The notes below the pieces were generated by a model. It had not been told where the DNA came from, searched no databases, and saw only the letters and a program-made list of their open reading frames with translations. A stretch of 64,000 nt of DNA from assembly GCA_020635205.1 (NCBI GenBank), contig JACKAE010000001.1, positions 22,059-86,058 on the forward strand. The letters are read 5' to 3'. Position 1 is the first letter of the stretch. Each line of letters begins with the position of its first letter. The DNA is from Ignavibacteria bacterium (lineage in GTDB: Bacteria > Bacteroidota > Ignavibacteria > OLB7). Both the position numbers and the translations under genes were made by a program. Shown here piece by piece: positions 16,277 through 32,543 of this stretch.

Positions 16277-16726
16277 ATGAAACGAACACTCGCAATTCTC
16301 ACGATTGGTGCATCCTTGACCTTTACGGCATGTGGAGATGAAGCTGCAAAAGAGAAAGGGGATGAGATGACAGAGACAACTGAGCAGACGACAACTGAAA
16401 ATGAGACGGCAGTTGCCACGCAGCCCGAGGTTATAGACGGAGTGCAGGTGATTACCGTAAAAGTCGAAGATATGGGTTACACGCCGAGCAAAATTGCTTT
16501 CAAAGCGGGAATGCCTGCAAAAATCATCTTCGATCAACATGCCGAATATGAGTGCGCGAGCGATGTGATGTCCAAAGATCTCGGCATTGCTCTGACAAAA
16601 CTTCCCAAAGCAGAGAAGACGGAGGTTACTTTCACACCCGATAAAGCAGGAACCTATCAGTTTACTTGCGGTATGGATATGTTGAAGGGGACGGTGATTG
16701 TAGAAGAGGGAACAAGCCAGATGTAG
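16277..16726 (+). CDS. Cupredoxin-like copper-binding lipoprotein.
   Basis: Lipoprotein signal 'LTIGASLTFTACGDE'. Cupredoxin-type ligands 'DQHAEYECAS' and 'FTCGMDMLKGTV'. Lies within the copper island. Confidence 0.6.
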   Translation: MKRTLAILTIGASLTFTACGDEAAKEKGDEMTETTEQTTTENETAVATQPEVIDGVQVITVKVEDMGYTPSKIAFKAGMPAKIIFDQHAEYECASDVMSKDLGIALTKLPKAEKTEVTFTPDKAGTYQFTCGMDMLKGTVIVEEGTSQM

Positions 16727-16989
16727 AGAGCTTGGATTGGAAGCATTTAGGGAAGCTCTCTTCTATGAGCAGACCTTCTGAATGCAGAGGATAAAGTAAG
16801 ATTTTCTTTGTGGGATGTTTCACTGGAGACAATTGATTGTTACCTGCAACTGTTTCAAGGTGAGAGATTCCGAACAGAATGGAATGTGTACCGGCTCTCC
16901 GATGTCTGAGTGCCGGTACATATTCCTGCTTTAGCGCGTGAACGAAGAGGCGGGTAATTTGAGCACTTCTCTTGTGATGAATTCCCGAC

Positions 16990-17110
16990 TTTGAGTCGGG
17001 GGGGGATTGAGTGAAAACAGGCAGAGAAACGGCTTGAAGCCGTTTTCTTCTATGTGGATGCTCCAAAACACCCCGATGAATCGGGGTGTTAATGTGAGGT
17101 GGAGATTCCC
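16990..17110. repeat. MITE-like dispersed repeat, copy B.
   Basis: 'CCCGACTTTGAGTCGGGGGG...AAACGGCTTGAAGCCGTTT...CACCCCGATGAATCGGGGTGTTAATG'. Nearly identical to copy C about 225 bp downstream. Confidence 0.8.
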
Positions 17111-17212
17111 TCATTAATTGTTCAAGTGCACTGAGTTGGAAGCATGTCAAGAGACGACCTGAAGGTCTTTGCCGAATTTGTCGAGCGCTGTGGGTTCAGT
17201 TTCCAACTGATA

Positions 17213-17340
17213 GTAACCCTCGACTTTGAGTCGGGGGGGGGATTGAGTGAAAACAGGCAGAGAAACGGCTTGAAGCCGTTTTCTTCTATGTGGATGCTCC
17301 AAAACACCCCGATGAATCGGGGTGTTAATGTGAGGTGGAA
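17213..17340. repeat. MITE-like dispersed repeat, copy C.
   Basis: Same sequence as copy B. Overlapping ORFs on both strands translate the shared 'HINTPIHRGVLEHPHRRKRLQAVSLPVFTQSPP' peptide and are artefacts of the repeat. Confidence 0.8.
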
Positions 17341-17530
17341 GAGAATATCTGGTTGGTGTTGAGGAGTAACTAATCCCGCTGTTTTTGGTTTTCCTTTTGG
17401 TTGTGTGCGAAAGCAACCTACCTCGCCCTGTGAGCCGCACCTTGCTCAAGAAAAGTGATCCCTACCCCGAAGAAAGAAGTAATCAGTATTGAGAAAAATA
17501 AATGTACTCGATCATAACTATGGAGTCTGT

Positions 17531-19249
17531 ATGAAGTATTACTGTACAATGTTCACCTTTATCTGTTGTTGCGTGCTGACTGTTTCGGCAACAGCACAGG
17601 AATTTGATTCGTTGACTGTGAAGGCGAGGGATAACGCTGACAATGCAGGCGTTGCGGGAGCAACCGTAAAGCTGTTAGATGATAGTGGAAACCTTGTGGA
17701 CGAAGTAACCACCGACGAGAATGGGAATGCCGGTTTTAGCTTCAGTACCTCAAGTATTGGTAACAACGTGGCTTACACTACTGGTCTCGGTGAGCCATAT
17801 CCCAATCCTTTTACTTCCCACACAACTCTACCTATTTCCCTCCGGTCACCGGCGCGGCTAACTGGTGCAGTTTACGACCTTCTCGGTAGAGAGCTTGCCT
17901 CGGTTGAAGGAGACCTTGGAATCGGCTCTCACTCGTTCGATCTCGATCTCTCCGGTGTTCCTGCCGGCCTCTATCTCTTTCACTTGAGTAGCGGAGGAAA
18001 AGAGATCGGTTCAATTCGGTTGAACCACTCAGGTTCTGGAGCGAACGGTAACGTTAACCTTCACATCCTTCGCGGTGCTGGCACTCCTCCGGCGGCAGAC
18101 AAACCAGCTATTCCCGGTACGTTCAGTCTTGTTATCTCCCACCCGAACTACAAAACGGTTACTGAATCGGATATTACGATTGAAGGAAGGAGTGTGAGGT
18201 TCATCATGATGACGCGGGTTGAGCTTATTCCAGAGTTTGGAACAGATCAGAATCGGGTATTTACGGTGATTGCCGACGCGCGAAGCGGACTTGATGTGCC
18301 GCGCGACTTGGAGTTCAATCCGGTGCACCCAGAACAACTTTGGGTTGTGAACCGTGCCTTCGACGGAACGGTAACCTACTGGAATCCTGGAACTGCCGAG
18401 ATGACTTCGTTGAGAGTTCGAGACCTTTACGCTAACCACTTCATGGAAGAAGTGAGTGCAATTGCCTTCAGCGAGACGGAGCTTTTTGCGACTTCCCAAG
18501 AGTCTGTGAACACATACGATGGACAGCTTCCGGGGGGGAACAACTTTATGGGACCAGCACTCTGGACGGCAGATACAGCGATCTATAGTAAAGATGGGCT
18601 TGAGGACTGGGGAGAACTTGGCTCTCACCTCGACATGCTCCACGCAAGTCCGAACGGTATGGGCATTGCGCACGATCACGATAACGCCTACTGGTATGCT
18701 GATGGCTTCGGCGGTAACATCGTCTACTACGATTTTCAACAAGATCACGGTCCTGGTCACGACAACCATCGTGACGGTATCATTCGTCGTTACGTCGACG
18801 CACGTATCCAACGCCTTCCGAATGTGCCAAGCCACATGATTCTCGATAAGGAGAGTGGATGGCTCTACATCTGCGATCCAGGAAATCGGCGGGTTACTCG
18901 ATTGAATACCAAAACTGGCTCATACTCAGGTAGTGGTGAGACATTCTTTCCAGATTATGAGGAGGTGTTCGAATTCTCAACCTACACTGGAGCCACCTAC
19001 GAAGTCTTTGCGAACAGCAACCTTAGCCATCCATCTGGGATTGCACTCCACAACGGACGAATCTTCGTGACGGACAACGAGACTGGCGAGATCATCGCCT
19101 ACAACTTGACCGGTAAGGAGCTGAACCGCATCTCCACAAATGCTCAGAGCATTATGGGAATCGAGATCGGTCCAGATGGAAAAATCTGGTACGTCGATGC
19201 CGAGGCGAATCAAGTGGTGCGGATTGATGTGAAGGATGTAGGTGACTAA
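17531..19249 (+). CDS. Secreted protein with an N-terminal CarbopepD_reg-like domain, an internal T9SS-CTD-like module and a C-terminal NHL/beta-propeller-like region.
   Basis: Signal peptide 'MFTFICCCVLTVSATAQ'. 'VKARDNADNAGVAGATVKLLDDSGNLVDEVTTDENGNAGF'. The CTD-like block 'YPNPF...AVYDLLGRELASV...GLYLFHLSSGGKEIGSIRL' lies at aa ~100-180, not at the C-terminus. NHL-like 'GRIFVTDNETGEIIAYNL' and 'DGKIWYVDAEANQVVRID'. Confidence 0.6.
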   Translation: MKYYCTMFTFICCCVLTVSATAQEFDSLTVKARDNADNAGVAGATVKLLDDSGNLVDEVTTDENGNAGFSFSTSSIGNNVAYTTGLGEPYPNPFTSHTTLPISLRSPARLTGAVYDLLGRELASVEGDLGIGSHSFDLDLSGVPAGLYLFHLSSGGKEIGSIRLNHSGSGANGNVNLHILRGAGTPPAADKPAIPGTFSLVISHPNYKTVTESDITIEGRSVRFIMMTRVELIPEFGTDQNRVFTVIADARSGLDVPRDLEFNPVHPEQLWVVNRAFDGTVTYWNPGTAEMTSLRVRDLYANHFMEEVSAIAFSETELFATSQESVNTYDGQLPGGNNFMGPALWTADTAIYSKDGLEDWGELGSHLDMLHASPNGMGIAHDHDNAYWYADGFGGNIVYYDFQQDHGPGHDNHRDGIIRRYVDARIQRLPNVPSHMILDKESGWLYICDPGNRRVTRLNTKTGSYSGSGETFFPDYEEVFEFSTYTGATYEVFANSNLSHPSGIALHNGRIFVTDNETGEIIAYNLTGKELNRISTNAQSIMGIEIGPDGKIWYVDAEANQVVRIDVKDVGD

Positions 19250-19301
19250 GCAAAGGTGCGTGCCTACCTTCGCAGGCAACAACACCTGAAAAACATAAAG
19301 A

Positions 19302-19343
19302 GATGTGCTCCTCAAATACCTTCGAGGAGCACATCTTTTTGTT
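19302..19343. terminator. Bidirectional rho-independent terminator between convergent genes.
   Basis: Perfect 13-bp stem 'AGATGTGCTCCTC...GAGGAGCACATCT' followed by a T-run (and an A-run on the other strand). Confidence 0.75.
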
Positions 19344-19468
19344 TCCCGACTCTTTGACTCTCGACTCTCATCTCCCTCCACCAATCCCGGGACGCTCCCT
19401 AAAGAGCCGCTGCTACCAATTGTGGCCTATTGCGATCTCCACTCCTACACTCCCACACTCATCTCCTT

Positions 19469-22400
19469 TCATCGTTGAACGATTATCTTCTCCGTTACTC
19501 GACCGTTCAACGTCTTTAACTCTACAAGGTAGGTTCCCGGCTTCAGCGTGCTTCCATCGAACTCGACGGCGTAGCGGCCTGCTTCAAACAACTCCTTCTC
19601 GATCATCCGTTCAACTTCTCGACCCATCGCGTCGTAGACTGTCATGCTCACGTGTTCCTTCCTACTTACCGAGAATCGGAACTCCGTCTCGCCCGTCGTC
19701 GGGTTCGGTTGGGCCGAGATGCGGAGTCCGTTCCCCGCTTCGCCGTCGAGTTTGCGAACCCGTTTACCTGCCAGGCTTTCGATCCAGCCTTGAGTGCGAC
19801 CAGATGTCCACATCGCTGTGCTGTCGAGTGCGAAGTTCGAGAGAAGATTGCTCGAAGCGAGGCGGAGCCGGACGTAATATGTGCCGGAGAGAACCTCAAT
19901 CACTTTGTCGGTGATCCGATACTCTGCGGGGTTTGTCGTCACGTCAAGTCGTGTGGAGTCGAGCAGGTAGGCACGGACACCCGTAGCCGAGTCGACGAGT
20001 TCTAACAGAAAATCGATCGACTTTCCCGTTGCAGTTGCCGAGTCACCGTGGAAAAATTGCAGAGCCATCGTTCCCCCTATCGCAACGCTATCTCCGGTGC
20101 TGAACGACTCTGTTTTGAGAAGAGCCAGAAGATCAGTCAAGCTGTCTGGGACTGCCTCGGCTATCAGGTTGAGGTTGCGACTCTCTTCAGCATCACTGAA
20201 CCAGACATCGTAGAGTCGAGCGGAGAATCCAATCGGTACTGAGTCGTTCAGTCGCGCCCCCACTTCACGTCCATCGGCCAAGTATCCATCGGGTCGGGTG
20301 CGGGCGTAGTACTGGCGTGTTGTTCTGAGGGTGCTGTCGGGAGGGAGACCGTAGAGGACAGAGTATCTATTCACCAACTTCCCCTCTGATGCTGTTCCGT
20401 TTGGATTATATCCTCCGTGGTTAAAGGTCTTCCAGTATTGGTACTGCCACGTTGGTGTAGCACCCATCAACCATTCAGCCTCGACTTGGTGCATCAGACT
20501 TGTTAAATCATCCCGTTGGAAGACGATAGAGAAGAGAGGAGCCTCAGAGGAATCAGCAGGAACCATCACCTGATTTTGTGAGGAGACAACCGGAAAGGCA
20601 TAATCTGATGAATTTGCTAAGTACATCTCTCGGCTTATCCACGTTCCCATCAACGACGATTGATTATAGGCAGTGTCGAAAAAGATTGATCGGAAGAAGA
20701 CATCAGAATAATAGTCGTCGCGCACCCAAATGCCATTCTCGTAGACAGGAAAGAACCGATACCACTCCCAGGTCACCCCCTCCATCACCCGGCCAAGTCC
20801 ATCTTGGGATTGGTCAATTGAGGGGTGGATGTAGTGATTGGCCAATACTCCCTGAGGAACTCCATTATACGGATTGGTAAAGGGAAAGGGAGAAATGTAG
20901 TAGGGTGAATTCATCGTATTTATCTCGAATGAGAACTGCAGCTTTGGACCTGCCGTGGGAGGGATATAGTTCAATCGACCATAGACAATACCGATGTAGA
21001 TTCCGTACGTGTTGGTATCGGGCTGCTGCCAGACGATTGGGGCTGATTGCTGCTTCATCTGACGGTGAGTAAAAGGGGGCATCGATGGATATTGACCAAT
21101 GCCATACCCCTGAGATGGTTGATAAAATTGGCTTATCGTATCGTATGGTGTCCAGACCGGAAAGTTCAGGAAGTTGGTATCCATTAAGCGTCCTCGCGCG
21201 ACGATGCCAACAGTTGAATCGCTCCAAGCAATGTACTCCCCAATACCACTATCACCACTTGCCGAGGAGATCACCGGTGTTCCCCATTGGTAGGGGTCTA
21301 ATCCGTAGTGGTAGCCAACACTCTTGATTGGTTGGACGAACATATCTTCGATGGTGTCCCCATTCGAGTTGGTATAGGTAAAGTATTGAATATCCCGAAT
21401 CAAGACTTCACGCTGTCCGACAAAACCGGTGTCGTTCGGGTGGGCAGTCCAGACGATGGAGACACGCGGGGTTGCCTTGTTTGTGTAGGAACGAATAGTA
21501 ATCGAAGGGTGTGTATTCTGTGTGCGAGTCTGGCCACCGGTCATGTTCCCGGAGACAGGCCACTCTATCGGTTCCCAGAGAATCGCCCCCAACTCCTGCA
21601 TCGGCAGAGAGCGACGGAAGAAGACGTGGTAGTCACTCAGTGCACTATCCCAGCGAAAATAGGTCGAGAAATACCGGTCTGTTTTAGGATCGTACACAAT
21701 TTTGCGTTGATTGCTGTGCGAGAGATCACCCGGAGCCATCGATTCGTCCGGTTGGGTGTAGGTTATGCGTAGAAGTGCGGCTCGACCTGCGCCTAACGTT
21801 AAGCGTACTGTGGCTATTCCTGAGCCTACTGATGAAACAACCGTGTCGAGTCCGGCTCTCTTCCCTATCAGTGGAAGGTGGGTTGTGTCGGGAACAACTT
21901 CCACCACTCGAACAAATCGGTTATACTGGTTTGAGGTATCTGGACTTACCAATTTGAGCGTCAACTCGATTGTGCGCGTTTCGCTCAGTGTGTCGAGAAT
22001 TGCCTTCGTTGCGGAGGAGTAGCCGATGTCGGCACTGTCGTAGTTTCCTGTCTCGAATACTCTCCTGTTCACAACGCTGATCCAGTTCGTATCATTAAGT
22101 CTGTTGCGTACTCCTCCGGTTGTGTCAATCATCGTATCGTACAGTCCGATCTCTACGTATGTTCGGTTTAGTGAATCAACAACACCGGTAATGGGATGCC
22201 ACGCCTTTACACCTTTGATGATTTCATTGGAGGGTATGGTGCGGTGGAGAACCCCCTGTGTGCCCCCCGCCCCATCATACTCTGCGGCTGGTTCATCTTG
22301 CTGAAAGTGAATGCTGTAGGCATCCCGCCAGTGGAGGCGTTTGGTGTAGCTGCCAATCTGCTTGAACCAAGCTAACCGCTCTTTTAACTCCTTGTAGGTA

Positions 22401-24652
22401 TCGCGAAACCCGAAGTAGAGATCATCAATCATACCCAACGTGTCGTGACGAAATTCACCGTTCGCATCAACTGATCCAGAGGTTCGAAGCTGCAGCGGGT
22501 AGTCGATGAAGTTGTAGAGCGTATCGCGCAGCGTTAGGCCACCAAAGCCACTCTCAGCAACCTTCTCAGTAATAAGGTAGTCGTTGTCATCGAATAGGTG
22601 CCACGGGTAGACGTTGAACTTGTATAAGGCTAATCCGTAAGAACCGTAGCCGAGAACCATTGCGTTCAGAAGTGCCCGAACCTCCGCACGCTCGAAGCGG
22701 TGGTCCATAAGTGTGTCGTAGCCCCCCGCTCCACTCGCTATCTTGAAAAAACTCTGCAACCCTGCATAGCCAGTGTAGCGTCGGCCAGTGATTCTGCCAA
22801 GGTGGGCAGTCTCGTACATTGTTTTCATTCGCCACAAGTGGGTCTTCCCCTCTGTATAGTTGAACGTCTGTCCCGGAATTGCCGCCCCGAGCCTTCCGTG
22901 TTGCCAGAGAAGCTCCATCGTGTCGATACGCCCTTGCAGGAGTGCTGCGTAGCCAGATATCGACATCGAATCGAAGTCGAACAGGTGTGGAACCCCAAAT
23001 CTTCCACCGTCGTGTTGTTTTGCACTCGGGATATCGGGAATTGGAACACCCCCTGCCTTAATACCGAACTGATCCCCAAAGTTCCAGAAGCTCCGCCCGA
23101 TGTAGTTCCCCACCACCGACCGACTCGCATCCCCGTTCCACTCGATGTAGGGAACTGCCCAACCATGTTCAGAGGTCATCGTGTCGCCGGTGGCGAAGAC
23201 GTAAGCGGGGTTGTTCTGAATCACATTGTTCTTCAAACCGCGGTAGCCGTTGTAGGCTAAGGGGGGAGGCTCGTCCGTTCCGTAAACGCTGAGGAAACCA
23301 GACTTAAGTGTTGAGGTGGAGAAATCCATCGCAAGTGTGTCAATCTCTCGCCGGGCAGCATCCCTGTAGTCTACCCCCTCGGTATCATCTGTCCACAACA
23401 TGTGGGTGATAGAGTCCCGGACGCTCACCGAGTGCAAAGCCATCTTCTCTGTGCCAACGTAGATTACCTCGAGGTCGATACTCTTAGCAGTTACTCCAGT
23501 GTCAGCTGGTCCCCCCATCCCCTCACGTTGGAAGTTGATTTTTTTTGCGACTTCATGATAGATGTCCCAGTTAAAGGGTGGATTTCCTACTGGTTTCAAC
23601 TCTGCTTTCGTTACTGCAACAGATTTATAGAGAAAACGCAAGTTCGTATCGGCAGTTTGGAGCGTGTAAGGAGACGCAGAATCGCGGTACGTCTTCCCCT
23701 TGTCCACTTCATAGTAGATGTTAAGGATAAGCATCGTATCGTTGTCGGCTCCTTCGCCACCATTAAACAGATGCCCTTTGATTGTGAGATAGTGGGGAGA
23801 CCGGAACGCATTCCAGATATCCCCTTTGTATTCTCCCGGCTTTTCTGGATCCGGCCCATAATAGCTAACCCCATCGAAGAGTTCTGAAGAGTTGATCGGA
23901 TTGTCTGTCGTTACCCAGTTCGTCCCGTTGAATGTCTGATCCCACCGCTCAGTCTGACTACTCTTGTGGCGGAAGGCGATGCCGGAGGCGACGGTATCGC
24001 CAGAAGAGGATGGGAGATAAACTGCTTCGCGATAGTGATAATCTTGCTTACGGAAAAAGTCGTGTACGTAAAGAGAAAATGGATTTACTCGCAATGAATC
24101 ATACAGATAGTTGGTAAACACATTATCATACCACGGAGAGACAGTCAGCAGGTTCGTCAGATACCCCAGTCCACGCATCTCCGACGTATCGAAGGGATAG
24201 AAGACTGCCTCGCGCGCCTGCTGCGACTGGTGAATGTATGAGGGAAGCCCGTGGTGTCCATCATAACTGGTAAGGGGAACAACGTACTTCCCAGTCGGGG
24301 CTGAGTTGATGAGGGTCTGGTATCGCCCCCACCGGTCGAACTTGTAGGTCCCCTTCTCCACTGAATAGATTACGTAGTCTCCACCAATCCGGCTCACGTA
24401 ATCCCACACCTCATTCATTGCCACTTGGTTATAACTGTAGAACCAGATACCGACAGGAAAGTCGTCTGGGAACTGTCGGGGGATGTTTACCCTGTCGGCC
24501 AGTGTAGAGTCGTACCACTCACGGTATCCGGCCGGTTGCCCTGAGCTTTCGGGGGGAAAGAGGAGAGGGAAGAAAAGAATAAGGGCGGCAAGTTGCCAGC
24601 TTCGCAGCATAGACTGCCACCTTGTTCTGTTAGTGGTATTCATAGAGGGCAC
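19469..24652 (-). CDS. Very large (1727 aa) T9SS cargo protein of unknown function.
   Basis: Uninterrupted 5.2-kb ORF. N-terminal signal 'WQLAALILFFPLLFPPESSGQ'. Canonical C-terminal T9SS domain 'RISAQPNPTTGETEFRF...MTVYDAMGREV...GTYLVELKTLNGRVTEKIIVQR'. Confidence 0.7.
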   Translation of the reverse strand: MPSMNTTNRTRWQSMLRSWQLAALILFFPLLFPPESSGQPAGYREWYDSTLADRVNIPRQFPDDFPVGIWFYSYNQVAMNEVWDYVSRIGGDYVIYSVEKGTYKFDRWGRYQTLINSAPTGKYVVPLTSYDGHHGLPSYIHQSQQAREAVFYPFDTSEMRGLGYLTNLLTVSPWYDNVFTNYLYDSLRVNPFSLYVHDFFRKQDYHYREAVYLPSSSGDTVASGIAFRHKSSQTERWDQTFNGTNWVTTDNPINSSELFDGVSYYGPDPEKPGEYKGDIWNAFRSPHYLTIKGHLFNGGEGADNDTMLILNIYYEVDKGKTYRDSASPYTLQTADTNLRFLYKSVAVTKAELKPVGNPPFNWDIYHEVAKKINFQREGMGGPADTGVTAKSIDLEVIYVGTEKMALHSVSVRDSITHMLWTDDTEGVDYRDAARREIDTLAMDFSTSTLKSGFLSVYGTDEPPPLAYNGYRGLKNNVIQNNPAYVFATGDTMTSEHGWAVPYIEWNGDASRSVVGNYIGRSFWNFGDQFGIKAGGVPIPDIPSAKQHDGGRFGVPHLFDFDSMSISGYAALLQGRIDTMELLWQHGRLGAAIPGQTFNYTEGKTHLWRMKTMYETAHLGRITGRRYTGYAGLQSFFKIASGAGGYDTLMDHRFERAEVRALLNAMVLGYGSYGLALYKFNVYPWHLFDDNDYLITEKVAESGFGGLTLRDTLYNFIDYPLQLRTSGSVDANGEFRHDTLGMIDDLYFGFRDTYKELKERLAWFKQIGSYTKRLHWRDAYSIHFQQDEPAAEYDGAGGTQGVLHRTIPSNEIIKGVKAWHPITGVVDSLNRTYVEIGLYDTMIDTTGGVRNRLNDTNWISVVNRRVFETGNYDSADIGYSSATKAILDTLSETRTIELTLKLVSPDTSNQYNRFVRVVEVVPDTTHLPLIGKRAGLDTVVSSVGSGIATVRLTLGAGRAALLRITYTQPDESMAPGDLSHSNQRKIVYDPKTDRYFSTYFRWDSALSDYHVFFRRSLPMQELGAILWEPIEWPVSGNMTGGQTRTQNTHPSITIRSYTNKATPRVSIVWTAHPNDTGFVGQREVLIRDIQYFTYTNSNGDTIEDMFVQPIKSVGYHYGLDPYQWGTPVISSASGDSGIGEYIAWSDSTVGIVARGRLMDTNFLNFPVWTPYDTISQFYQPSQGYGIGQYPSMPPFTHRQMKQQSAPIVWQQPDTNTYGIYIGIVYGRLNYIPPTAGPKLQFSFEINTMNSPYYISPFPFTNPYNGVPQGVLANHYIHPSIDQSQDGLGRVMEGVTWEWYRFFPVYENGIWVRDDYYSDVFFRSIFFDTAYNQSSLMGTWISREMYLANSSDYAFPVVSSQNQVMVPADSSEAPLFSIVFQRDDLTSLMHQVEAEWLMGATPTWQYQYWKTFNHGGYNPNGTASEGKLVNRYSVLYGLPPDSTLRTTRQYYARTRPDGYLADGREVGARLNDSVPIGFSARLYDVWFSDAEESRNLNLIAEAVPDSLTDLLALLKTESFSTGDSVAIGGTMALQFFHGDSATATGKSIDFLLELVDSATGVRAYLLDSTRLDVTTNPAEYRITDKVIEVLSGTYYVRLRLASSNLLSNFALDSTAMWTSGRTQGWIESLAGKRVRKLDGEAGNGLRISAQPNPTTGETEFRFSVSRKEHVSMTVYDAMGREVERMIEKELFEAGRYAVEFDGSTLKPGTYLVELKTLNGRVTEKIIVQR

Positions 24653-24725
24653 TCCTGTTTGATGGTGAATTGAAGAGCCAGTATAGCTCCTTTACTATTA
24701 CTGCTATTACGAAAGTTTTTATGCT

Positions 24726-26411
24726 CTACTGTTTGATGATTGGTGCTGTTCCAATTACCTCACCTCCCCCATCGAAGGCAACCACGCGGTAGGCTCCAGA
24801 GGGAATATCTCCACACTCCCACAACGCCGCACCTATCGAGGAGTTCACCTCTCCACGCACAACCTCACGTCCCGACATGTCGTATGCCGCAAACCATGCT
24901 GGCTTCTTCTTCAAGTTCCCTCGCCAGGCAATGTGCAACTCATCAATTACCGGGTTCGGCCACACGTACAACCCACCACTCTCGCCAGCGATTGGGTATT
25001 CTTGCACACTCAGCGTCGTGTCGTCTAACGGTATGCTCGGACCACCCGCAACAACAACTGCTACACCTGCGGTGATCCCTCCTGGCCAGCCATAGTCTCC
25101 GATGATGAAATCTCCATACCCATCACCTGTCACGTCACCGGCTGGACGCATCACAATCACATTCAAGTGATCCAATGCCGGACTGTACCACGCCTCGTAG
25201 TCGTAATCTGGACCATACGCGCTTCCAGAGACCAACAACATCGTAGGCTTCTCACCAGGGCGGAGGGGTTCGGCTAAGGGCAACATATCGTACCGATAGG
25301 CTGTGTCGTTGAGCGAACCGACTCGGTAATCGAACAAGCCAGTCTTGTAGAACAGGTCGGCAGAGTCAATGGAGAAGCTGCGGGTACGAACGTTTCCCCG
25401 CGTTGAGAGATAGACCGACGTGCCATCGATCGTTCCGCCACCATATCCAGCGATGTCGGCGGCAGCATCTCCATCGAGATGATAGAAGCCGAGATTCAGT
25501 GTGCTGTTGATACCAGTGACACCACTTACCAGAGGGAGGTTGCGATCAGCAGGACGTTGAGACCATGAAGCAGGAGAGTTGTTATCACCCCAGAAGAAGC
25601 GGAGCATGTATCCACCTTGAGGGTAGTTTCCACCGAAGGCCAAATCGAATTTATGATCTCCATCGAAGTCTTCAAACCAGACTTGCCAGGCATCAGCTTC
25701 GCCGAACTGGCTGGTATCCTTGACAATCACATCGGGTTCTTCTAACTGAAAGTCTGGACCGCCATAGTAGATCCATACCTGGTTCGATCTATCGATTCCT
25801 GTATCGCGTCGATAACCTACTCGTAAGCCGCCAAGCACCACTATTACATCATCAATACCATCATTGTTTACATCAGATACCAGAATATCTTCAAGGAAAC
25901 GCTCTACTGGCGGTACTTTCTTGCCATGATCCACCGTTAGAAATGGAGTTCGATTAATCCCAGCACTCGTGAACTCATGCAACTGCATAATCTCATAATA
26001 GCGTGTCGCTTCATCCACGACTTCCTGATAGCCGTTGAGGTATAACACCGATTGTCGGCCATCTCCATAAAAATCTTTTATATAAGGCAATGTGGAACCA
26101 ACTGAATCTGATACCCATATAGGATCAGTTGAGAGATTCTTCCCTCCGGCATAATAGTACCAACGCCACTCCGAACGCTTATACTGGGCAAAATCAGCCG
26201 TATCATCTCCGTTGATATCCACTCCACCCCACACGTTATACCCAATCTCCTCAAATAAGATGGCATCCCCCCGTACCTCCCACACCTTCTGCAACTGCAC
26301 GGCGTTCGGGTTTGCTTTCAACACGTTTTGGCTCCGTAGCGGTATGCTCGTCAGGGTGAGTAACCCGATGAGTGGGAGCAATAGGAGTGTATGGAGAGTA
26401 TCTCTGTTCAT
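24726..26411 (-). CDS. FG-GAP repeat (integrin-alpha-like beta-propeller) protein with a T9SS C-terminal domain. Tandem paralogue 1.
   Basis: Signal 'MNRDTLHTLLLLPLIGLLTLTSIPLRSQ'. FG-GAP/Ca-binding motifs 'DINGDDTADF', 'DVNNDGIDDVIV', 'DFDGDHKFDL' and 'GDVTGDGYGDFIIGD'. CTD 'LYVWPNPVIDELHIAW...AYDMSGREV...SGAYRVVAFDGGGEVIGTAPIIKQ'. An alternative upstream start lies at 26456. Confidence 0.7.
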   Translation of the reverse strand: MNRDTLHTLLLLPLIGLLTLTSIPLRSQNVLKANPNAVQLQKVWEVRGDAILFEEIGYNVWGGVDINGDDTADFAQYKRSEWRWYYYAGGKNLSTDPIWVSDSVGSTLPYIKDFYGDGRQSVLYLNGYQEVVDEATRYYEIMQLHEFTSAGINRTPFLTVDHGKKVPPVERFLEDILVSDVNNDGIDDVIVVLGGLRVGYRRDTGIDRSNQVWIYYGGPDFQLEEPDVIVKDTSQFGEADAWQVWFEDFDGDHKFDLAFGGNYPQGGYMLRFFWGDNNSPASWSQRPADRNLPLVSGVTGINSTLNLGFYHLDGDAAADIAGYGGGTIDGTSVYLSTRGNVRTRSFSIDSADLFYKTGLFDYRVGSLNDTAYRYDMLPLAEPLRPGEKPTMLLVSGSAYGPDYDYEAWYSPALDHLNVIVMRPAGDVTGDGYGDFIIGDYGWPGGITAGVAVVVAGGPSIPLDDTTLSVQEYPIAGESGGLYVWPNPVIDELHIAWRGNLKKKPAWFAAYDMSGREVVRGEVNSSIGAALWECGDIPSGAYRVVAFDGGGEVIGTAPIIKQ

Positions 26412-26549
26412 GGTTGTTCTTACATAATCATTTTTGGTTGCTTGTACTATGTACAATTCTAAGCTCTATCGTACAAGTGAAATTTCATGCCTATGAACTC
26501 CTCATTGAGAAGGATAGTGCCCCTCTCTGCCGAACGGTATTGATAGTTC

Positions 26550-28232
26550 CTATCCTTTTACAATTGGAGCAGTACCGATTACTTGGCTCCCCCCATCGAA
26601 GGCAACCACGCGGTAGGCTCCAGAGGGAATATCTCGACACTCCCACAACGCCGCACCTATCGACGAGTTTACCTCTCCACGCACAACCTCACGTCCCGAC
26701 ATGTCGTATGCCGCAAACCACGCTGGCTTCTTCGCCAAGTTTCCTCGCCAGGCAATGTGCAACTCATCGATCACCGGGTTCGGCCAGAGATACAATCCAC
26801 CCGACTCACCAGCAATTGGGTATTCCTGCACACTCAGTGTCGTGTCGTCCAACGGTATACTTGGACCACCTGCCACAACAAAGGCAATCCCACTCCGGAT
26901 TCCCCCACCAAACATTCCATCACCTGCAATGAAATCATCATAGCCATCTCCTGTCACATCGTGGATGCCCAATAACTTTGAAAAGTCGACGTGATCCAAT
27001 GCTGGACTGTACCACGCCTCATAATCATAGTCTGGGCCATACGTACTTCCCGATACTAAGATCAACGAGCGTTGTTCGCCTTGTTTCAATGGTGCTCCCA
27101 GTGGCAGCATCTCATAGCGACGTAGAGTGTCGTTCAGATAGCCAGGCGAATCCTGAAACAGTCCCGTCTTATAGAATAAATCGGCTGAATCGACTGAGAA
27201 ACTGCGTGTACGAACGTTCCCTCGGGTCGAGAGATAGACCGATGTCCCATCAATCCCACCTCCAGTGTATCCAGCAATGTCTACGGCATCGTCACCATCC
27301 AACCGATAGAATCCTACACTCGTTGTTGCATTGATTCCCGTCTGGCCATCTATTAACGGCACATTACGATCTGCTGAACGTTGTGACCATGATGTTGGTG
27401 AGTTCTCATCCCCCCAATAGAAGCGGAGCATCTGGCCACCGAGTTGATACCCTCCAGCAAAGATCATATCGAGCTTGTGATCTCCATCGAGATCTGCAAA
27501 GTGTACATCCCAATAATATTCAGGCTCACCATACTGACTACTATCCTTGACAATCACATCCGGCTCCTCTAACTGAAAGTCTGGGCCGCCATAGTAGATC
27601 CACACCTGATTATTCGCGTCTAAGCCTTCTCCTCGGACTTGACCTGTTCGAACACCATACATGGAGACAATTACATCATCAATCCCATCATTATTCACAT
27701 CTTCCACGTATAGGTTATGAAAACTCCGTGAAATCGGGGGAACATGCTTCCCTAAATCCTCTGATACTATTGCGACTCTACTTAACCCCGTATCAGCCAA
27801 TTCGTAAAGATTTAGGATATCATATGTATAGTAAAAGTCATCAATCTCTAATCGATACCCACCTACCCACAGCATGTACTGACGACCATCGCCATAAAAA
27901 TCACCAACTGATGGAAGTCCCATTGAATCAATCGTTAGAATCGGCTCAGTCGATAGTGACTTTCCTCCAGCATAAAAGTACCAGCGATATTCTGAACGTT
28001 TGAATTGCCCAAAGTCGGCTGTATCGTCTCCATTCAGATCGACTCCTCCCCAGACATCATACCCAATCTCCTCAAACAAGATGGCATCCCCCCGTACCTC
28101 CCATACCTTCTGCAACTGCACGGCGTTCGGGTTCGGCTTCAACACGTTTTGGCTCCGCAGTGGTATGCTCTTCAGCGTGAGTATCCCGATGAGTGGGAGC
28201 AATAGGAGTGTATGGAGAGTATCTCTGTTCAT
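26550..28232 (-). CDS. FG-GAP repeat protein with a T9SS C-terminal domain. Tandem paralogue 2.
   Basis: Same N-terminus, FG-GAP motifs and CTD as 24726..26411. The upstream intergenic sequence is also duplicated (26457-26549 matches 28278-28370). Confidence 0.7.
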   Translation of the reverse strand: MNRDTLHTLLLLPLIGILTLKSIPLRSQNVLKPNPNAVQLQKVWEVRGDAILFEEIGYDVWGGVDLNGDDTADFGQFKRSEYRWYFYAGGKSLSTEPILTIDSMGLPSVGDFYGDGRQYMLWVGGYRLEIDDFYYTYDILNLYELADTGLSRVAIVSEDLGKHVPPISRSFHNLYVEDVNNDGIDDVIVSMYGVRTGQVRGEGLDANNQVWIYYGGPDFQLEEPDVIVKDSSQYGEPEYYWDVHFADLDGDHKLDMIFAGGYQLGGQMLRFYWGDENSPTSWSQRSADRNVPLIDGQTGINATTSVGFYRLDGDDAVDIAGYTGGGIDGTSVYLSTRGNVRTRSFSVDSADLFYKTGLFQDSPGYLNDTLRRYEMLPLGAPLKQGEQRSLILVSGSTYGPDYDYEAWYSPALDHVDFSKLLGIHDVTGDGYDDFIAGDGMFGGGIRSGIAFVVAGGPSIPLDDTTLSVQEYPIAGESGGLYLWPNPVIDELHIAWRGNLAKKPAWFAAYDMSGREVVRGEVNSSIGAALWECRDIPSGAYRVVAFDGGSQVIGTAPIVKG

Positions 28233-28370
28233 TGTTGTTCTTACATAATCATTTTTGGTTGCTTGTACTATGTACAATTCTAAGCTCTATCGCACAAGTG
28301 AATTCTCACGCCAATAAGCTCCTCATTGAGAAGGATAGTGCCCGTTTCTGCCGAATGATATTGATAGTTC

Positions 28371-28460
28371 CTATCCTTTTACAATTGGAGCAGTACCGAT
28401 TACTTGGCTCCCCTCATCGAAGGCAACCACGCGGTAGGCTCCAGAGGAGATAGTGGTTAA
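28371..28460 (-). pseudogene. Remnant 3' end of a third FG-GAP/T9SS paralogue.
   Basis: Only the last ~30 codons ('SGAYRVVAFDEGSQVIGTAPIVKG') and the downstream intergenic sequence are conserved. Homology ends abruptly at ~28460. Confidence 0.55.
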
Positions 28461-28899
28461 GAGATTTATTCTTCTCTGGAACTCCTCACCGCAAGGCTTC
28501 CTGGGCTTTTCTCCCGAACAAGATTCATATAGAGCGTGTTGACAATCACGATTTCCAGAAGGGACGCACCGCTGGTGCTCCACGGCAGAGGTATCGTCGA
28601 ATTCCTCGCGCTCACGCACGAGGCTATCAACCGGCTGTCGCTCCGCGATGTAACAGAACCATTACCGAAGAGCCGCAGCGCGGCGAACCGTTGGTAGCCT
28701 GGAGCGGAAGCTCCGGGCAACGAGAGTCTACCGAGAGCGTAGCTCCAGAGGAGCGTTCCTCCATTGAGGGCAGAGCGATCAGCGCATTGTCTGTCAACAC
28801 GCTATAGAAGTCTTTCCGTCATCGCTGCCGGCATCAGCACTAACACCACATCTCGAATATCTCTCTTGCCATTTCCCCTCAATCGGCATAACTTCTTCT

Positions 28900-30582
28900 A
28901 TGCCTATTAACAGACGAACATTTCTAAAGAGGACGGCGGCAGCTTCGGGGATCATTGCTGCAAGTCCTTTGCTTCGATACTCGAATCTTCTTGCCTCGCC
29001 AGATGAGGCGAACCCACTTCGTCGTATTCCCGACCTTGAAGGAAATCTGTTGACCGTTGCTCCAACGCGGTTCTCTCTCCGCCCGGGAGGAGACTCAGCT
29101 ATATACGGGATCAACGGCTCCTACCTCGGCCCAACTATTCGCCTGAATCGTGGCGGTGAGCTGAACGTGAAGATGGAGAACCGTTTGATCGACGAAGATT
29201 TGATTATTCACTGGCACGGCATTCTTGCCCCCTCTGAAATGGATGGACATCCACACTTGGCCGTTGGACCGGGAGAAGATTACGACTACAACTTCACAGT
29301 CAATCAGCGTGCCGGAACCTACTGGTATCACTCCCACACCGATAAGTTCACAGGATCACAAGTCTACAGAGGAGTTGCCGGTCTCTTTATCGTTCACGAC
29401 GAAGAAGAGTCAGGGCTTGGCCTGCCGAGTGGAGATTATGATATCTCTGTAGTTCTGCAAGACAAGAGAGTGACACCCGACTTTGAACTCGACTACAATT
29501 TGGCTCCGGTAGACGTTATGCGGGGGTGGCAGGGGGATACGATGCTTGTTAACGGCAGACCGAATGTTCAGTTGGATGTTGATCGAACGCTCTACCGCTT
29601 CCGTCTGTTGAACGGATCGAACGCTCGTGTCTTTCTGGTTGGGTTCGAGGATGGGCGAACGTTCCACCTGATTGCAAACGAGGGGGGGCTACTTGAATCT
29701 CCTGTGGAGATTGACCAGTTCTTCCTTCCACCTGCGGGGCGGGCAGAAATTCTTGTCGACTTCTCCGACGATGAACTTAACGCGAACCTTCTCCTCCGTT
29801 CTCTCACTTTCTTTAATGAATCGTTCCCCGGTTCGCGCCAGGGGAAGGAAGCCGACCTGCTCTGCTTTCGGGTGACTGGTGATGGGGATAGTGGAGGGGT
29901 TGTTCCGCAGACGATGACGACAATCGAGCCGTATGATCCAGAAGCTGCGATGCGATCTCGTTCGTTCCGGCTGCACATGGCGAACGGCCACCACGCGATT
30001 AACGACTTGAGCTTCGAGTTGAACCGGATTGACTTCGAGGTTCCGATGGGGGAACTGGAAGTCTGGGAGTTCTTCAACCCGACGCAGTTGATTCACCCAA
30101 TGCACGTCCACGGGACGCAGTTCCAGATACTCGACCGCAACGGTCGGACGGAAAACATCCGTCCAGAAGAGAAGGGGTGGAAAGATATGGCACTCCTCTT
30201 CCCTCAGGAGCAGGTGCGCGTGTTAGTTCGGTTCGATGCCCACCCCGGAAGGTTCATGCTTCACTGCCACAACCTTGAACATGAAGATGATGGGATGATG
30301 CTGAACTTCCGAGTGAACAACCCGGCCTCAGTTGGGGGGGGTGTCGGAGAGAGAGGGCATCTCTCGGCTTCACCGAATATCGTGGAGAAGGAGACGTTGA
30401 TTCGGTTCAATCCAGTAAAGGGTGATCGCCAACTACAGGTGATCGACCTTCAAGGGCGAACCCTTCTTCAAAGGATAATCCCTTCGGGAAGAGACTCCTC
30501 TCTTCTCGACCTTTCCGGATTCCCCTCCGGTTCTTACTGGTGTCGCCTCGGCAACGAGTCGGTTCGGCTACTTGTAAAGTAG
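28900..30582 (+). CDS. Multicopper oxidase (CueO/laccase-like) with a twin-arginine signal and a T9SS C-terminal domain.
   Basis: Tat motif 'NRRTFLKRTAAASGIIAASPLL'. Copper-site motifs 'HWHG', 'YHSH', 'HPMHVHG' and 'HCHNLEHEDDGMM'. C-terminal 'LIRFNPVKGDRQLQVIDLQGRTL...PSGSYWCRLGNESVRLLVK'. Confidence 0.8.
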   Translation: MPINRRTFLKRTAAASGIIAASPLLRYSNLLASPDEANPLRRIPDLEGNLLTVAPTRFSLRPGGDSAIYGINGSYLGPTIRLNRGGELNVKMENRLIDEDLIIHWHGILAPSEMDGHPHLAVGPGEDYDYNFTVNQRAGTYWYHSHTDKFTGSQVYRGVAGLFIVHDEEESGLGLPSGDYDISVVLQDKRVTPDFELDYNLAPVDVMRGWQGDTMLVNGRPNVQLDVDRTLYRFRLLNGSNARVFLVGFEDGRTFHLIANEGGLLESPVEIDQFFLPPAGRAEILVDFSDDELNANLLLRSLTFFNESFPGSRQGKEADLLCFRVTGDGDSGGVVPQTMTTIEPYDPEAAMRSRSFRLHMANGHHAINDLSFELNRIDFEVPMGELEVWEFFNPTQLIHPMHVHGTQFQILDRNGRTENIRPEEKGWKDMALLFPQEQVRVLVRFDAHPGRFMLHCHNLEHEDDGMMLNFRVNNPASVGGGVGERGHLSASPNIVEKETLIRFNPVKGDRQLQVIDLQGRTLLQRIIPSGRDSSLLDLSGFPSGSYWCRLGNESVRLLVK

Positions 30583-30683
30583 CATATCAAAGGAGAGTTC
30601 ATACTATCAAGTTCGGTTCCCTTACGTTGGGTACAGCAGAAGAGGGGAGAGAAAACTGTGCAACTACACGATGAGGTAAGTTC

Positions 30684-32543
30684 ATGAATCGCTACCACAT
30701 ATTTCTCTGTTCGGTCGCTCTGGTTCTTTTCGGGGCGTATCACTCTGGAGGCCAGACCATCGCCGATCCAATTCGCGTTAATGCTGACGAGGGGAATGCT
30801 ATGCAGGGAGGTCCGATGCTCCGCGTTGGGCCAGATGGAACTATCTACGCCGCGTGGGTTGACTTTCGGAAGAATTCCGGTGGCGACGTCTACATGCGGA
30901 CTTCAACTGATCGAGGGGCAACCTTCTCGGATGAACACGTTGTCTACAGTGGGGGCAAGGTTCCCTCGGGCCGAGGACGAGGAGCCGATTTTGTGGTAGC
31001 TCCAGATGGGACGATTCACATGGTCTGGCTTGCCCTGTATGGCTTGGGTGGAACGGATATCCGCTACGTCCGCTCGACAGATGGAGGGAAGACGTTTACC
31101 TCTCCGGTCTCCGTTGTGGGTGACGATGCTGGTGGAGCGCAGGACTTCCCATCAATTGCCGTAGACAGCAACAGCAATTTCTACATTGCCTGGATTGATG
31201 GCCGCGACATCAAGAAGGGAACTTTGAATACCGACCAGATTTATATGACCCGCTCTACTGACGGCGGGGCAACCTTTGCCGAGCCGAAGAGGGCGAGCAT
31301 CATGCCGGAAGGTATCGGAGGATCGTGCGAGTGCTGCAACACGAGTACGGCAGTCTCTCCAGATGGCGACATCTACATCGCATTTCGGGCAAACGTGAAC
31401 AATCTGCGCGATGTTCACATTGCTCGGTCGCGAGACGGAGGGGAATCGTTTGAGCCGGCAATCAAGGCAGCGAGCGAGACGTGGGAAATCTTTGCTTGTC
31501 CGATGGCCGGTCCGGTGGTTGCGCTCGACCGAGATGAGCGGGCGCACATCATGTGGAAGGATAACCGCCCATCTGCAAATGGTAAACAATACATCTACTA
31601 TACCATTCTCCCGAAGAATGCCGACGGTTGCCTCTTCGACTATCCACTCACGCGCGAGGCGGAGCAGACAAACTATCCAACGCTCGATATTGCTCCCTCG
31701 GGGGCGATGGTCTGCACGTTTGAGAACGTGACGCTGGGGAAGATTCAAGGACTCTACATGATTTCGGGGGATGGGGGACATAGTTTTGAGGAGAGGGAGG
31801 GATTGACAAGTGGACAAGAGGGGGTGAACCAAGAGATGCCAGTAATTGTGAGTGGTGCCGACGGAAGCCGCTATATCCTCTGGCAAGATGATCGCCGTGG
31901 AAACACCGACATCTGGTTTGCCCGCGACGATTCTTCGATAGAGCTTACGTTACCTGAGGCCGTAGAGCTTCTCGGGCCGAACGACGGCACAACGTTCGAC
32001 CAAAACGGTTATCTCTCCTGGAGTACCCCACCAAATCTTGCTGGCGGCAGAAATGTAATCTACACGCTCACTCTCGAATCGCTCTCCAATCCGGGAAGGG
32101 TGATTACCGTAGAGGATATTTACACGACAACCTATCGACCCGAAATTCCTGATGGGACATATCGTTGGAGTGTGGTTGGCCGAACTACCGTTGGCTCTTC
32201 CCGAATCTCAGATACCCGAACATTTACGCTCAGCCGCACAAGTTCCGTAGCAGATATGCGTGGCGTTGAGTGGGGGGGGATGGTAACAATCACTCCAAAT
32301 CCTATCAGAGGTGAAGGAACGATTCGGCTGAAGCTCTCTCCCTCACTCGCGAACGCGAAGAATGTGCAGTTATCAATTGTTGACCTGCTCGGAAGGGAGC
32401 AAGTGGAGATCGGTCAACAGCAGTTATTGCAGGGGAACCTTGCTGTCGACGTTAACCTTGAGTCTCTCAGCAATGGTCTCTACTATCTTTTGTTGTGGGC
32501 TGAGGGGAATCGAACGCTCTATCCTCTCGTGATTTCCCGTTAG
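30684..32543 (+). CDS. BNR/Asp-box repeat protein (sialidase/glycosidase-like beta-propeller) with Fn3-like domains and a T9SS C-terminal domain.
   Basis: Five Asp-boxes ('STDRGATFS', 'STDGGKTFT', 'STDGGATFA', 'SRDGGESFE', 'SGDGGHSFE'). Signal peptide. CTD 'TITPNPIRGEGTIRLKL...GLYYLLLWAEGNRTLYPLVISR'. Confidence 0.7.
   Translation: MNRYHIFLCSVALVLFGAYHSGGQTIADPIRVNADEGNAMQGGPMLRVGPDGTIYAAWVDFRKNSGGDVYMRTSTDRGATFSDEHVVYSGGKVPSGRGRGADFVVAPDGTIHMVWLALYGLGGTDIRYVRSTDGGKTFTSPVSVVGDDAGGAQDFPSIAVDSNSNFYIAWIDGRDIKKGTLNTDQIYMTRSTDGGATFAEPKRASIMPEGIGGSCECCNTSTAVSPDGDIYIAFRANVNNLRDVHIARSRDGGESFEPAIKAASETWEIFACPMAGPVVALDRDERAHIMWKDNRPSANGKQYIYYTILPKNADGCLFDYPLTREAEQTNYPTLDIAPSGAMVCTFENVTLGKIQGLYMISGDGGHSFEEREGLTSGQEGVNQEMPVIVSGADGSRYILWQDDRRGNTDIWFARDDSSIELTLPEAVELLGPNDGTTFDQNGYLSWSTPPNLAGGRNVIYTLTLESLSNPGRVITVEDIYTTTYRPEIPDGTYRWSVVGRTTVGSSRISDTRTFTLSRTSSVADMRGVEWGGMVTITPNPIRGEGTIRLKLSPSLANAKNVQLSIVDLLGREQVEIGQQQLLQGNLAVDVNLESLSNGLYYLLLWAEGNRTLYPLVISR

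Follow-up and report, generated by a model that had tools for sequence, protein, structure and literature searches.

The open reading frame at positions 28900..30582 (+ strand) of the 64,000-nucleotide stretch of Ignavibacteria bacterium DNA analyzed here (the window) encodes a real three-domain multicopper oxidase, which begins with a predicted twin-arginine (Tat) signal peptide and ends in a putative T9SS C-terminal sorting domain (CTD). As judged by sequence comparison, this pairing of signals is a conserved trait of the oxidase family in Ignavibacteria-like and Bacteroidota lineages. The dual-signal architecture and its conservation are features of the proteins themselves; from these we infer a secretion route, in which the oxidase is probably a secreted or cell-surface enzyme exported in two steps, by Tat over the inner membrane and by T9SS over the outer membrane.

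The ORF is complete (560 aa plus stop) and, according to the ORF listing, Pfam/NCBIfam matches and an AF2 model, comprises the Tat signal, the three oxidase domains, a linker and a type-A-like CTD; its N-terminal sequence is MPINRRTFLKRTAAASGIIAASPLLRYSNLLASPDE. Position 28900 is the first start codon past the upstream stop, and close homologs start at the same position (alignment A1). The identical 560-aa protein, publicly named 'multicopper oxidase domain-containing protein [Ignavibacteriae bacterium]', was found by database search on 15 independent public contigs from several samples; assembly GCA_020437445.1 and a 1.28-Mb contig are among its carriers. The AF2 full-length model has a mean pLDDT of 91. 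A promoter and terminator scan around the gene gave nothing useful.

The oxidase core consists of cupredoxin domain 1 (aa 62-169; 29083..29406, +; PF07732, Cu-oxidase_3, E 2.7e-31), domain 2 (aa 213-290; 29536..29769, +; PF00394, Cu-oxidase, E 2.3e-07), which AF2 models as β-strands at high pLDDT, and domain 3 (aa 360-474; 29977..30321, +; PF07731, Cu-oxidase_2, E 1e-29), each Pfam model scoring above its gathering score. All twelve copper ligands are present. Domain 1 carries HWHG (H104, H106) and HSH (H144, H146), in columns that are invariant in A1, and domain 3 carries HPMHVH (H399, H402, H404) and HCHNLEHEDDGMM (H455, C456, H457, H461, M466). The corresponding motifs, HxH, HxH, HxxHxH and HCHxxxHxxxxM, are invariant both in the 20-sequence alignment A1 and across 87 homologs. 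The best solved relative of the core is bilirubin oxidase 8z59 (E 1.3e-93), and in a PDB profile search none of the solved relatives reaches past aa 476.

The predicted Tat signal peptide spans aa 1-32 (28900..28995, +), as indicated by the sequence, TIGR01409, the CueO-, FtsP- and CopA-type models and the homolog alignment. Its n-region contains NRRTFLK (aa 4-10; 28909-28929, +), with R5-R6 as the twin arginine, to be compared with the consensus (S/T)-R-R-x-F-L-K at the n/h boundary. The h-region is TAAASGIIAASPLL, and the c-region is basic (R26) ahead of LLA32; the predicted signal peptidase I site, LLA(32)|S(33), was placed by reference to the L-[LR]-A / x-F-A position that homologs conserve. 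The alignments to the models of CueO, FtsP and CopA-type oxidase, which are known Tat substrates, begin at profile positions 1-6 and at residues 1-3 of the oxidase. R5 and R6 are invariant among the 20 homologs of A1 (41-76% identity) while the remainder of the signal varies, and the basic c-region residue is kept in the close homologs. The initial annotation had called this a textbook Tat motif. The fit to the consensus and the invariance of RR support a Tat signal, although TIGR01409 stays just below its cut-off (aa 3-23; 15.4 bits, E 0.017; cut-off 16.7), and Pfam TAT_signal gives no match to the oxidase at E<=1. Of the 97 ORFs in the window that are 100 aa or longer, the oxidase is the only one with the strict motif in its first 40 residues; the six-frame translation of the window holds three occurrences in total, and the chance of finding it in an N-terminus, calculated from the window motif counts, is ~1e-3 per ORF. 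Peak hydrophobicity over 12 residues is 1.68 in the oxidase versus 2.46-2.82 in six neighboring CTD proteins with Sec-type signals. AF2 models the N-terminus as a helix (5-25) followed by a segment of low confidence.

Behind the core, a Gly-rich linker that AF2 predicts to be disordered (aa 477-486, SVGGGVGERG; 30328..30357, +; pLDDT <50) leads into a seven-strand β-sandwich (aa 489-560; 30364..30579, +), which profile searches, hhalign, AF2 and Foldseek point to as a divergent, shortened type-A T9SS CTD. It retains the motifs PN(I), D516-x-x-G519-R and G544-x-Y546 and terminates in LLVK. The domain had been described as canonical, which is too strong: it has PNI in place of PNP, falls ~12-20 residues short of the classic type-A length, and scores under the cut-offs of both CTD models. 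TIGR04183, whose failure to match had been proposed as a refutation, gives 18.5 bits (E 0.0014) against a cut-off of 23, and PF18962, whose cut-off is 27, scores the whole protein at 17.4 bits and the isolated tail at 21.9 bits; these sub-cut-off matches are still significant (E-values 1.4e-3 to 2e-4), and TIGR04183 matches 67 of 87 homologs, with a best E of 2.7e-13. Its identity as a CTD stands. Compared by hhalign with the other CTDs of the window, the tail subfamily reaches 98.1% probability (E 7e-14), and the tail profile matches the T9SS CTDs 8glj_D/8glk_D (E ~2e-6), mirolase 8qb1 (6e-4) and RgpB 5hfs in the PDB. On these profile-profile and PDB comparisons, the predicted CTD, divergent and shortened as it is, is firmly identified.

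PF18962 also matches 29 of 30 aligned tails. Alignment A3 shows no variation in D-x-x-G and G-x-Y and almost none in the first two residues of PNP (proline and asparagine), and this conservation indicates selection. The AF2 model of the CTD alone (pLDDT 94.6) has seven strands in a 3+4 Ig-like arrangement over aa 489-559, and in Foldseek it finds the mirolase CTD (TM 0.78), the NucA CTD in its T9SS complex (TM 0.71) and also PorU. Ig domains of cellulases and fibronectin type III domains score like the CTDs in the same search, and the fold match is therefore supportive only. Matches of FlgD_ig and AbfS_sensor to the tail were read as cross-matches of Ig-like sandwiches and rejected as alternative identities.

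The combination is found throughout the oxidase family, which argues against reading it as a peculiarity of one gene. RR-x-hydrophobic-hydrophobic stands at the called start of 67 of 89 CTD-bearing homologs, and TIGR01409 matches 18 of 87 homologs at E<=0.1. Ignavibacterium album, for one, encodes a Tat-plus-CTD homolog with 42% identity. The other 22 of the 89 are called without RR; for both 'no RR' homologs examined at the DNA level, the gene callers had missed an in-frame MKRREM start further upstream, with stop codons before it. The h-region is weakly hydrophobic in the 68 family members with RR and CTD (median 1.56, maximum 2.15) compared with 91 unrelated CTD proteins (median 2.55), these being the usable ones among the best 150 CTD representatives. 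In a survey of Tat and CTD co-occurrence, as the initial annotation had suggested, the pairing runs throughout the oxidase family, and the strict motif occurs in 0/91 of the unrelated CTD proteins and a loose RR only in 2/91, so that in this set no Tat-plus-CTD family beyond the multicopper oxidases was found. In a contig search with the oxidase family, the window's own species was not among the matches, the best of which had 49% identity.

Family members differ in what follows the oxidase core. The CTD is the tail in Ignavibacteria-like and some Bacteroidota lineages; many Bacteroidota have a lipobox version; Verrucomicrobia-like lineages carry an unrelated tail ending in FYRL, with no Pfam match; and members from Proteobacteria have no second-stage address. 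The Tat signal looks ancestral to the family, and we propose that second-stage addresses were added to a Tat oxidase core differently by phylum. The FYRL-ending and other phylum-specific tails may point to further unrecognized outer-membrane sorting signals.

The oxidase gene lies within a run of CTD-bearing genes (15105..32543; PF18962 17-37 bits). The six genes, at 15105-16220 (+), 17489-19249 (+), 19469-24652 (-), 24726-26456 (-), 26550-28277 (-) and 30684-32543 (+), all encode Sec-type, strongly hydrophobic signals. Such a run shows that the organism makes heavy use of the CTD sorting signal. Several plainly typical CTDs among them also score just 17-18 bits, and low scores would therefore be a feature of the lineage and not decay. 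With Pfam and NCBIfam models run on all large ORFs, no Tat or T9SS machinery genes were found in the 64-kb window. Further upstream, the window contains a Cus-type heavy-metal RND efflux operon (7743..13976, +) that encodes an outer-membrane factor (PF02321), a CusB-like fusion protein with a heavy-metal-binding domain (PF16576 and PF19335) and an AcrB/CusA-like pump (PF00873), and comparable metal genes directly adjoin Tat-plus-CTD oxidase genes at four other loci (L001, L006, L008, L009). This operon and the heavy-metal genes flanking orthologs at the four loci support a role tied to metal homeostasis; the oxidase likely acts at the cell surface or outside it, oxidizing Cu(I) or else phenolic or metal substrates.

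In the route that we favor, the oxidase and its C-terminal β-sandwich would fold in the cytoplasm, probably copper-free. The signal features and the homology to CueO and FtsP suggest that the NRRTFLK signal would then direct the protein to the Tat translocase, with signal peptidase I cutting after LLA32. The analogy with CueO and CutO suggests that the enzyme would acquire its copper in the periplasm or at a later stage. Given the identity of the C-terminal domain, the folded CTD would be recognized by the PorV/SprA translocon and the oxidase moved over the outer membrane, after which the CTD would be removed at the Gly-rich linker and the oxidase released or surface-anchored. The initial annotation had instead assumed cytoplasmic copper loading before export, which is doubtful: according to PMC8456105, which cites Stolle et al. 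(2016), the cytoplasmic form of CueO, a homologous Tat substrate, is copper-free and receives its metal post-export, and maturation of CutO needs copper brought to the periplasm by CopA.

The premise that T9SS cargo is normally delivered by Sec agrees with the view of the field. According to a 2023 review, every T9SS effector carries a Sec-dependent signal peptide (PMC10202324), and T9GPred applies a 'no Tat signal' rule derived from 102 experimentally verified cargos, none with Tat (bioRxiv 10.1101/2023.03.31.535141). In our full-text literature search, no publication on a T9SS cargo fed by Tat came up. The dual signal, which had been considered mechanistically noteworthy, is real and departs from this description, but the conflict implied is weak. 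T9SS cargo folds in the periplasm and crosses the outer membrane folded, via the very large SprA barrel (PMC9251779; PMC10202324), so the translocon meets a folded protein by either inner-membrane route; as CueO moreover crosses Tat without copper, the tension is less than was claimed. For the lineage itself, a T9SS is described as possibly present in Ignavibacteriota (PMC11285876), and in Ignavibacterium and Melioribacter SprA, PorV and Plug are reported with other T9SS proteins absent (PMC11705866).

That last report bears on a different reading, in which a CueO-like oxidase is exported by Tat and stays in the periplasm, the sandwich being a degenerate or repurposed Ig-like domain (serving, for example, in binding or in attachment to PorV-like proteins) that has ceased to function as a secretion signal. 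The absence of most T9SS components would fit it (PMC11705866), as would the loss of the second PNP proline, the shortening and sub-cut-off TIGR04183 and PF18962 scores of the CTD, the periplasmic location of the known relatives CueO and FtsP, and metal-efflux neighbors that suit periplasmic copper detoxification. We nevertheless consider it unlikely. As in real cargo, the sandwich forms the very end of the chain and is preceded by a flexible linker, and its motifs in A3 appear to be under selection; relatives in the same family have textbook CTDs (E down to 2.7e-13), and the equally low scores of typical CTDs next door mark a trait of the lineage.

Some RR-containing signals are compatible with Sec. 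The oxidase could on that basis be an ordinary Sec-exported T9SS cargo, threaded unfolded, with the RR pair an inherited leftover of a Tat signal, and the narrow miss of the TIGR01409 cut-off, the lack of a TAT_signal match and the Sec dependence of all characterized cargos (PMC10202324; bioRxiv 10.1101/2023.03.31.535141) lean that way. A mere remnant is hard to reconcile with an RR that is invariant down to 41% identity while the flanking signal residues drift, or with an h-region hydrophobicity of 1.68 against 2.46-2.88 in the Sec signals examined. A basic c-region residue in Tat signals is a 'Sec-avoidance' feature, and it is kept in close homologs; the homologous CueO and FtsP/SufI are, in addition, standard Tat substrates. 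Sec export thus seems improbable, more so than retention in the periplasm. Start miscalls are common in the family, 22 of 89 CTD homologs having been called without their RR, and could raise the suspicion of chance or an annotation artefact, for instance a misplaced start codon, a fusion of ORFs or a chimeric assembly. We rejected a wrong start or a chimeric ORF on the upstream stop, the matching starts of close homologs and the 15 identical copies on independent contigs; with the whole chain confidently modeled by AF2 and a strict motif that rare by chance, the probability of an artefact is negligible.

The balance is about even as to whether Tat-to-T9SS is a genuine, conserved and unrecognized route for a family of pre-folded metalloenzymes in Ignavibacteria-like and Bacteroidota lineages, possibly working through a minimal SprA/PorV/Plug system; if it is, the statements that all cargo is Sec-dependent, and the predictor rules that discard Tat signals, would be wrong. 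A real Tat-to-T9SS route would mean that type IX secretion is not confined to Sec at the inner membrane, and that a conserved enzyme family is systematically overlooked by cargo pipelines which filter out Tat-positive proteins. The oxidase would then also offer a natural substrate for testing how the SprA translocon deals with a protein that enters the periplasm folded, and widespread environmental lineages would have a multicopper oxidase on or outside their cells, which bears on extracellular copper detoxification and on the oxidation of phenols or metals. The gain is moderate, not large, because the precedent of Tat followed by type II secretion is established and T9SS is known to move folded cargo.

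Among the closest known systems are E. coli CueO and FtsP (SufI), Tat-exported periplasmic proteins that, as here, have three cupredoxin domains and an N-terminal RR signal aligned from model position 1. The CueO model NF008205 matches the oxidase in two stretches with 353.6 bits (E 2e-105), below its equivalog cut-off of 525, and NF008135 gives 216.8 bits against an equivalog cut-off of 581. CueO structures match at E ~1e-65 to 1e-72, whereas the nearest solved relative is the bilirubin oxidase 8z59. From the sequence, domain 3 of the oxidase is without the Met-rich insert that CueO has over the T1 site; together with the sub-cut-off NF008205 score, this leads us to call the oxidase CueO-like and not to file it as CueO. 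Unlike CueO and FtsP, it adds a ~10-aa linker and a ~72-aa β-sandwich that is present in no solved relative. These additions resemble the established T9SS cargos F. johnsoniae NucA (8glk_D), T. forsythia mirolase (8qb1) and P. gingivalis RgpB (5hfs), which have a seven-strand Ig-like C-terminal sandwich behind a flexible linker and share the PN(P), D-x-x-G-R and G-x-Y motifs with the oxidase tail. The oxidase differs from them in its Tat-type rather than Sec-type signal, in its shortened, sub-cut-off CTD and in its Ignavibacteria-like host lineage, which is without an experimentally characterized T9SS.

The logic of the two steps is that of Tat followed by type II secretion, as for the Tat-dependent exoproteins of P. 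aeruginosa, where a Tat-folded protein is passed to an outer-membrane system for folded substrates (PMC4899797; PMC9127263), except that the second step here would be T9SS and would be set by a discrete, removable C-terminal domain in place of a conformational signal. The Tat-lipoprotein relatives from Cytophagales, Chitinophagaceae, Saprospiraceae and Balneolales share the oxidase core and the RR signal, but their signal ends in a lipobox-like S/A-C and the protein stops 6 residues past the last copper motif, with no CTD. In these relatives the lipobox gives the same enzyme a different second-stage address.

The oxidase is encoded by an ORF at 28900..30582 (+; 560 aa), which opens with the first start codon past the upstream stop. 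Pfam recognizes three cupredoxin modules (E 2.7e-31, 2.3e-07 and 1e-29), and the nearest NCBIfam models are CueO (353.6 bits) and FtsP (216.8 bits), both under the equivalog cut-offs. None of the twelve copper ligands varies across alignments of 20 and 87 homologs; the Met-rich insert of CueO is absent from the oxidase. The nearest solved structure is a bilirubin oxidase (8z59; E 1.3e-93), with SufI-like and CueO oxidases next, and since no solved relative reaches past residue 476, the last ~85 residues constitute an addition. The gene is real: an identical public protein, named 'multicopper oxidase domain-containing protein [Ignavibacteriae bacterium]', is carried by 15 contigs from several samples, and an assembly accident can therefore be rejected.

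At the N terminus, residues 4-10 read N-R-R-T-F-L-K, followed by a weakly hydrophobic stretch (TAAASGIIAASPLL), the basic residue R26 and then L-L-A32/S33. In 20 homologs (41-76% identity), R5 and R6 are invariant and the remaining signal is variable. The Tat motif claimed in the initial annotation is confirmed, although the call is borderline on single-sequence profiles, with TIGR01409 covering residues 3-23 at 15.4 bits (cut-off 16.7) and Pfam TAT_signal giving no match to the oxidase. The first positions of the NCBIfam CueO, FtsP and CopA-type oxidase models align at residues 1-3, and hence the signal region is positionally homologous to the signals of known Tat substrates. Among the 97 ORFs in the window that reach 100 aa, only the oxidase carries a strict Tat motif within its first 40 residues, and the six-frame translation of the window contains three such motifs in ~128,000 residues. 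Peak 12-residue hydrophobicity is 1.68 in the oxidase versus 2.46-2.82 in six neighbouring CTD proteins.

The C-terminal domain had been called a canonical T9SS CTD, with failure in T9SS-CTD profile searches (TIGR04183) named as the refuting outcome. At curated cut-offs this failure technically occurs (18.5 bits versus 23), and PF18962 also falls short (17.4 bits for the full protein and 21.9 for the tail alone, cut-off 27), so that "canonical" overstates the match. The domain has PNI where classic type-A CTDs have PNP and is shorter than these by about 12-20 residues; several plainly typical CTDs in neighbouring genes likewise score just 17-18 bits. Its identity as a CTD is upheld by hhalign-type profile-profile comparison, in which the short-tail subfamily matches the window's other CTDs with 98.1% probability (E 7e-14). 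Furthermore, TIGR04183 matches 67 of 87 full-length homologs (best E 2.7e-13), PF18962 matches 29/30 aligned tails, and the tail profile matches solved T9SS cargo CTDs, including 8glj_D and 8glk_D from F. johnsoniae translocon complexes, mirolase (8qb1) and RgpB (5hfs). In the AlphaFold model (pLDDT 91 for the full-length oxidase, 94.6 for the CTD alone), a disordered Gly-rich linker (477-486) precedes seven strands, and the top Foldseek matches of the CTD include those of mirolase (TM 0.78) and NucA (TM 0.71) as well as PorU, in an otherwise generic Ig-like neighbourhood. We conclude that this is a divergent, shortened type-A CTD.

The Tat+CTD architecture is a family trait rather than a one-off. 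A CTD-like tail is present in 89 of the best 120 homologs, and 67 of these 89 have RR-x-hydrophobic-hydrophobic at their annotated start. Of the 22 that seem to lack it, two were inspected on DNA; in each, the gene caller had overlooked an in-frame MKRREM start with stop codons ahead of it. The cultured Ignavibacterium album encodes a 42%-identical version (MKRREFIIK...KLIYLK). As a control, we took the best 150 representatives matching a CTD profile built from the window's non-oxidase CTDs only (207,734 matches at E<=0.001), and used the 91 with signal-like N termini. None of the 91 carries the strict motif, and the two with a loose RR have strongly hydrophobic, Sec-like cores; median signal hydrophobicity is 2.55 in the control versus 1.56 (maximum 2.15) in 68 RR+CTD oxidases. 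Together, these observations tie the Tat-type signal specifically to the oxidase's CTD family.

A scan of species-representative genomes found the RR-bearing core with different endings. The CTD ending occurs in Ignavibacteria, Kapaibacteria-like genomes and some Bacteroidota, and the tail-less core in Proteobacteria and others. Many Cytophagales, Chitinophagaceae, Saprospiraceae and Balneolales have RR and, at the end of the signal, a lipobox-like S/A-C, with no CTD or other tail (loci L013, L014, L015, L025, L026, L029, L038, L039, L042, L045, L053, L056, L059-L062, L067, L072, L076 and other Bacteroidota homologs), and these are predicted from their sequences to be Tat-exported lipoprotein versions. 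Verrucomicrobia-like homologs (proteins P0019, P0023, P0036, P0050, P0087 and others; locus L003) keep RR and replace the CTD with an unrelated ~70-aa tail ending in FYRL[VA]K[PG], which has no Pfam match and might serve as a domain for lineage-specific sorting or anchoring. The simplest reading is that an ancestral Tat-dependent oxidase gained lineage-specific second-stage addresses.

The two-signal architecture and its conservation are what is directly observed, and we infer every transport step. In the best-supported model, Tat would export a folded, probably copper-free oxidase, the signal would be cleaved and copper inserted outside the cytoplasm, and the CTD would then direct passage through the type IX translocon. 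The initial annotation had read the Tat motif as consistent with cytoplasmic copper loading, which Tat use does not imply here: CueO produced in the cytoplasm is copper-free and maturation of the related oxidase CutO needs copper pumped to the periplasm (PMC8456105). The implied conflict between a folded Tat cargo and T9SS is also weak, because T9SS cargo folds in the periplasm and crosses the outer membrane folded (PMC9251779; PMC10202324), so that a Tat-delivered folded protein poses no special problem for the translocon. The 64-kb window contains no tat or T9SS machinery genes; for Ignavibacterium and Melioribacter, only SprA, PorV and Plug are reported (PMC11705866).

Our best guess for the role of the oxidase is copper handling at the cell surface, with oxidation of phenolic or other metal substrates possible. 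In four related loci, the neighbours of the Tat+CTD oxidase gene include heavy-metal genes, which encode an HMA lipoprotein, Cus-type RND and fusion proteins, an HMBD protein and an HMA/cation-efflux protein. In the window, a Cus-type RND heavy-metal efflux operon (7743-13976, +), identified by domain matches and including a fusion protein with a heavy-metal-binding domain, and adjoining imelysin (Peptidase_M75) and di-haem oxidoreductase genes (1611-4339, +) together make the region 15-27 kb upstream of the oxidase a metal-handling neighbourhood. In L044, a Bacteroidota MAG locus, a LigB-type aromatic ring-opening dioxygenase (4843-5709) with its own RR-containing N terminus (MNRREVLSML) lies directly downstream of the Tat+CTD oxidase, a hint that aromatic compounds are substrates of some family members.

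Elsewhere in the window, repeat comparison identified two tandem FG-GAP + CTD paralogs (24726-26456 and 26550-28277, both -; 1824-nt period, 71-89% nucleotide identity). Upstream of the oxidase gene, a 620-bp spacer retains a 76-nt remnant of a third copy's 3' end (28377-28452), and the small ORF at 28371-28619 (-) is this decayed copy. The 586-aa protein at 17489-19249 (+) has an internal Por_Secre_tail-like domain (residues 104-172) between a CarboxypepD_reg-like domain and NHL/SGL beta-propeller repeats, reflecting either unusual sorting-domain placement or a wrong gene model. A 162-aa ORF (54407-54895, -) partially matches NF047646, a REP-associated tyrosine transposase (44.8 bits, cut-off 80). 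The 2050-aa ORF at 46502-52654 (-) has no Pfam match and a sub-threshold N-terminal TANFOR match (TIGR02542; 35 bits versus 67, E 1.2e-08); this domain is reportedly tied to a polymorphic toxin class in Bacteroidetes.

Full-text searching of one literature collection returned no description of a Tat-fed T9SS cargo and nothing relevant on multicopper oxidases with T9SS. According to reviews, T9SS operates together with Sec and every effector has a Sec signal (PMC10202324; PMC11285876; PMC8047123), and T9GPred, based on 102 verified cargos, uses a Tat signal as an explicit rejection rule. Tat export followed by type II secretion (PMC4899797; PMC9127263) is an established precedent for the same logic.
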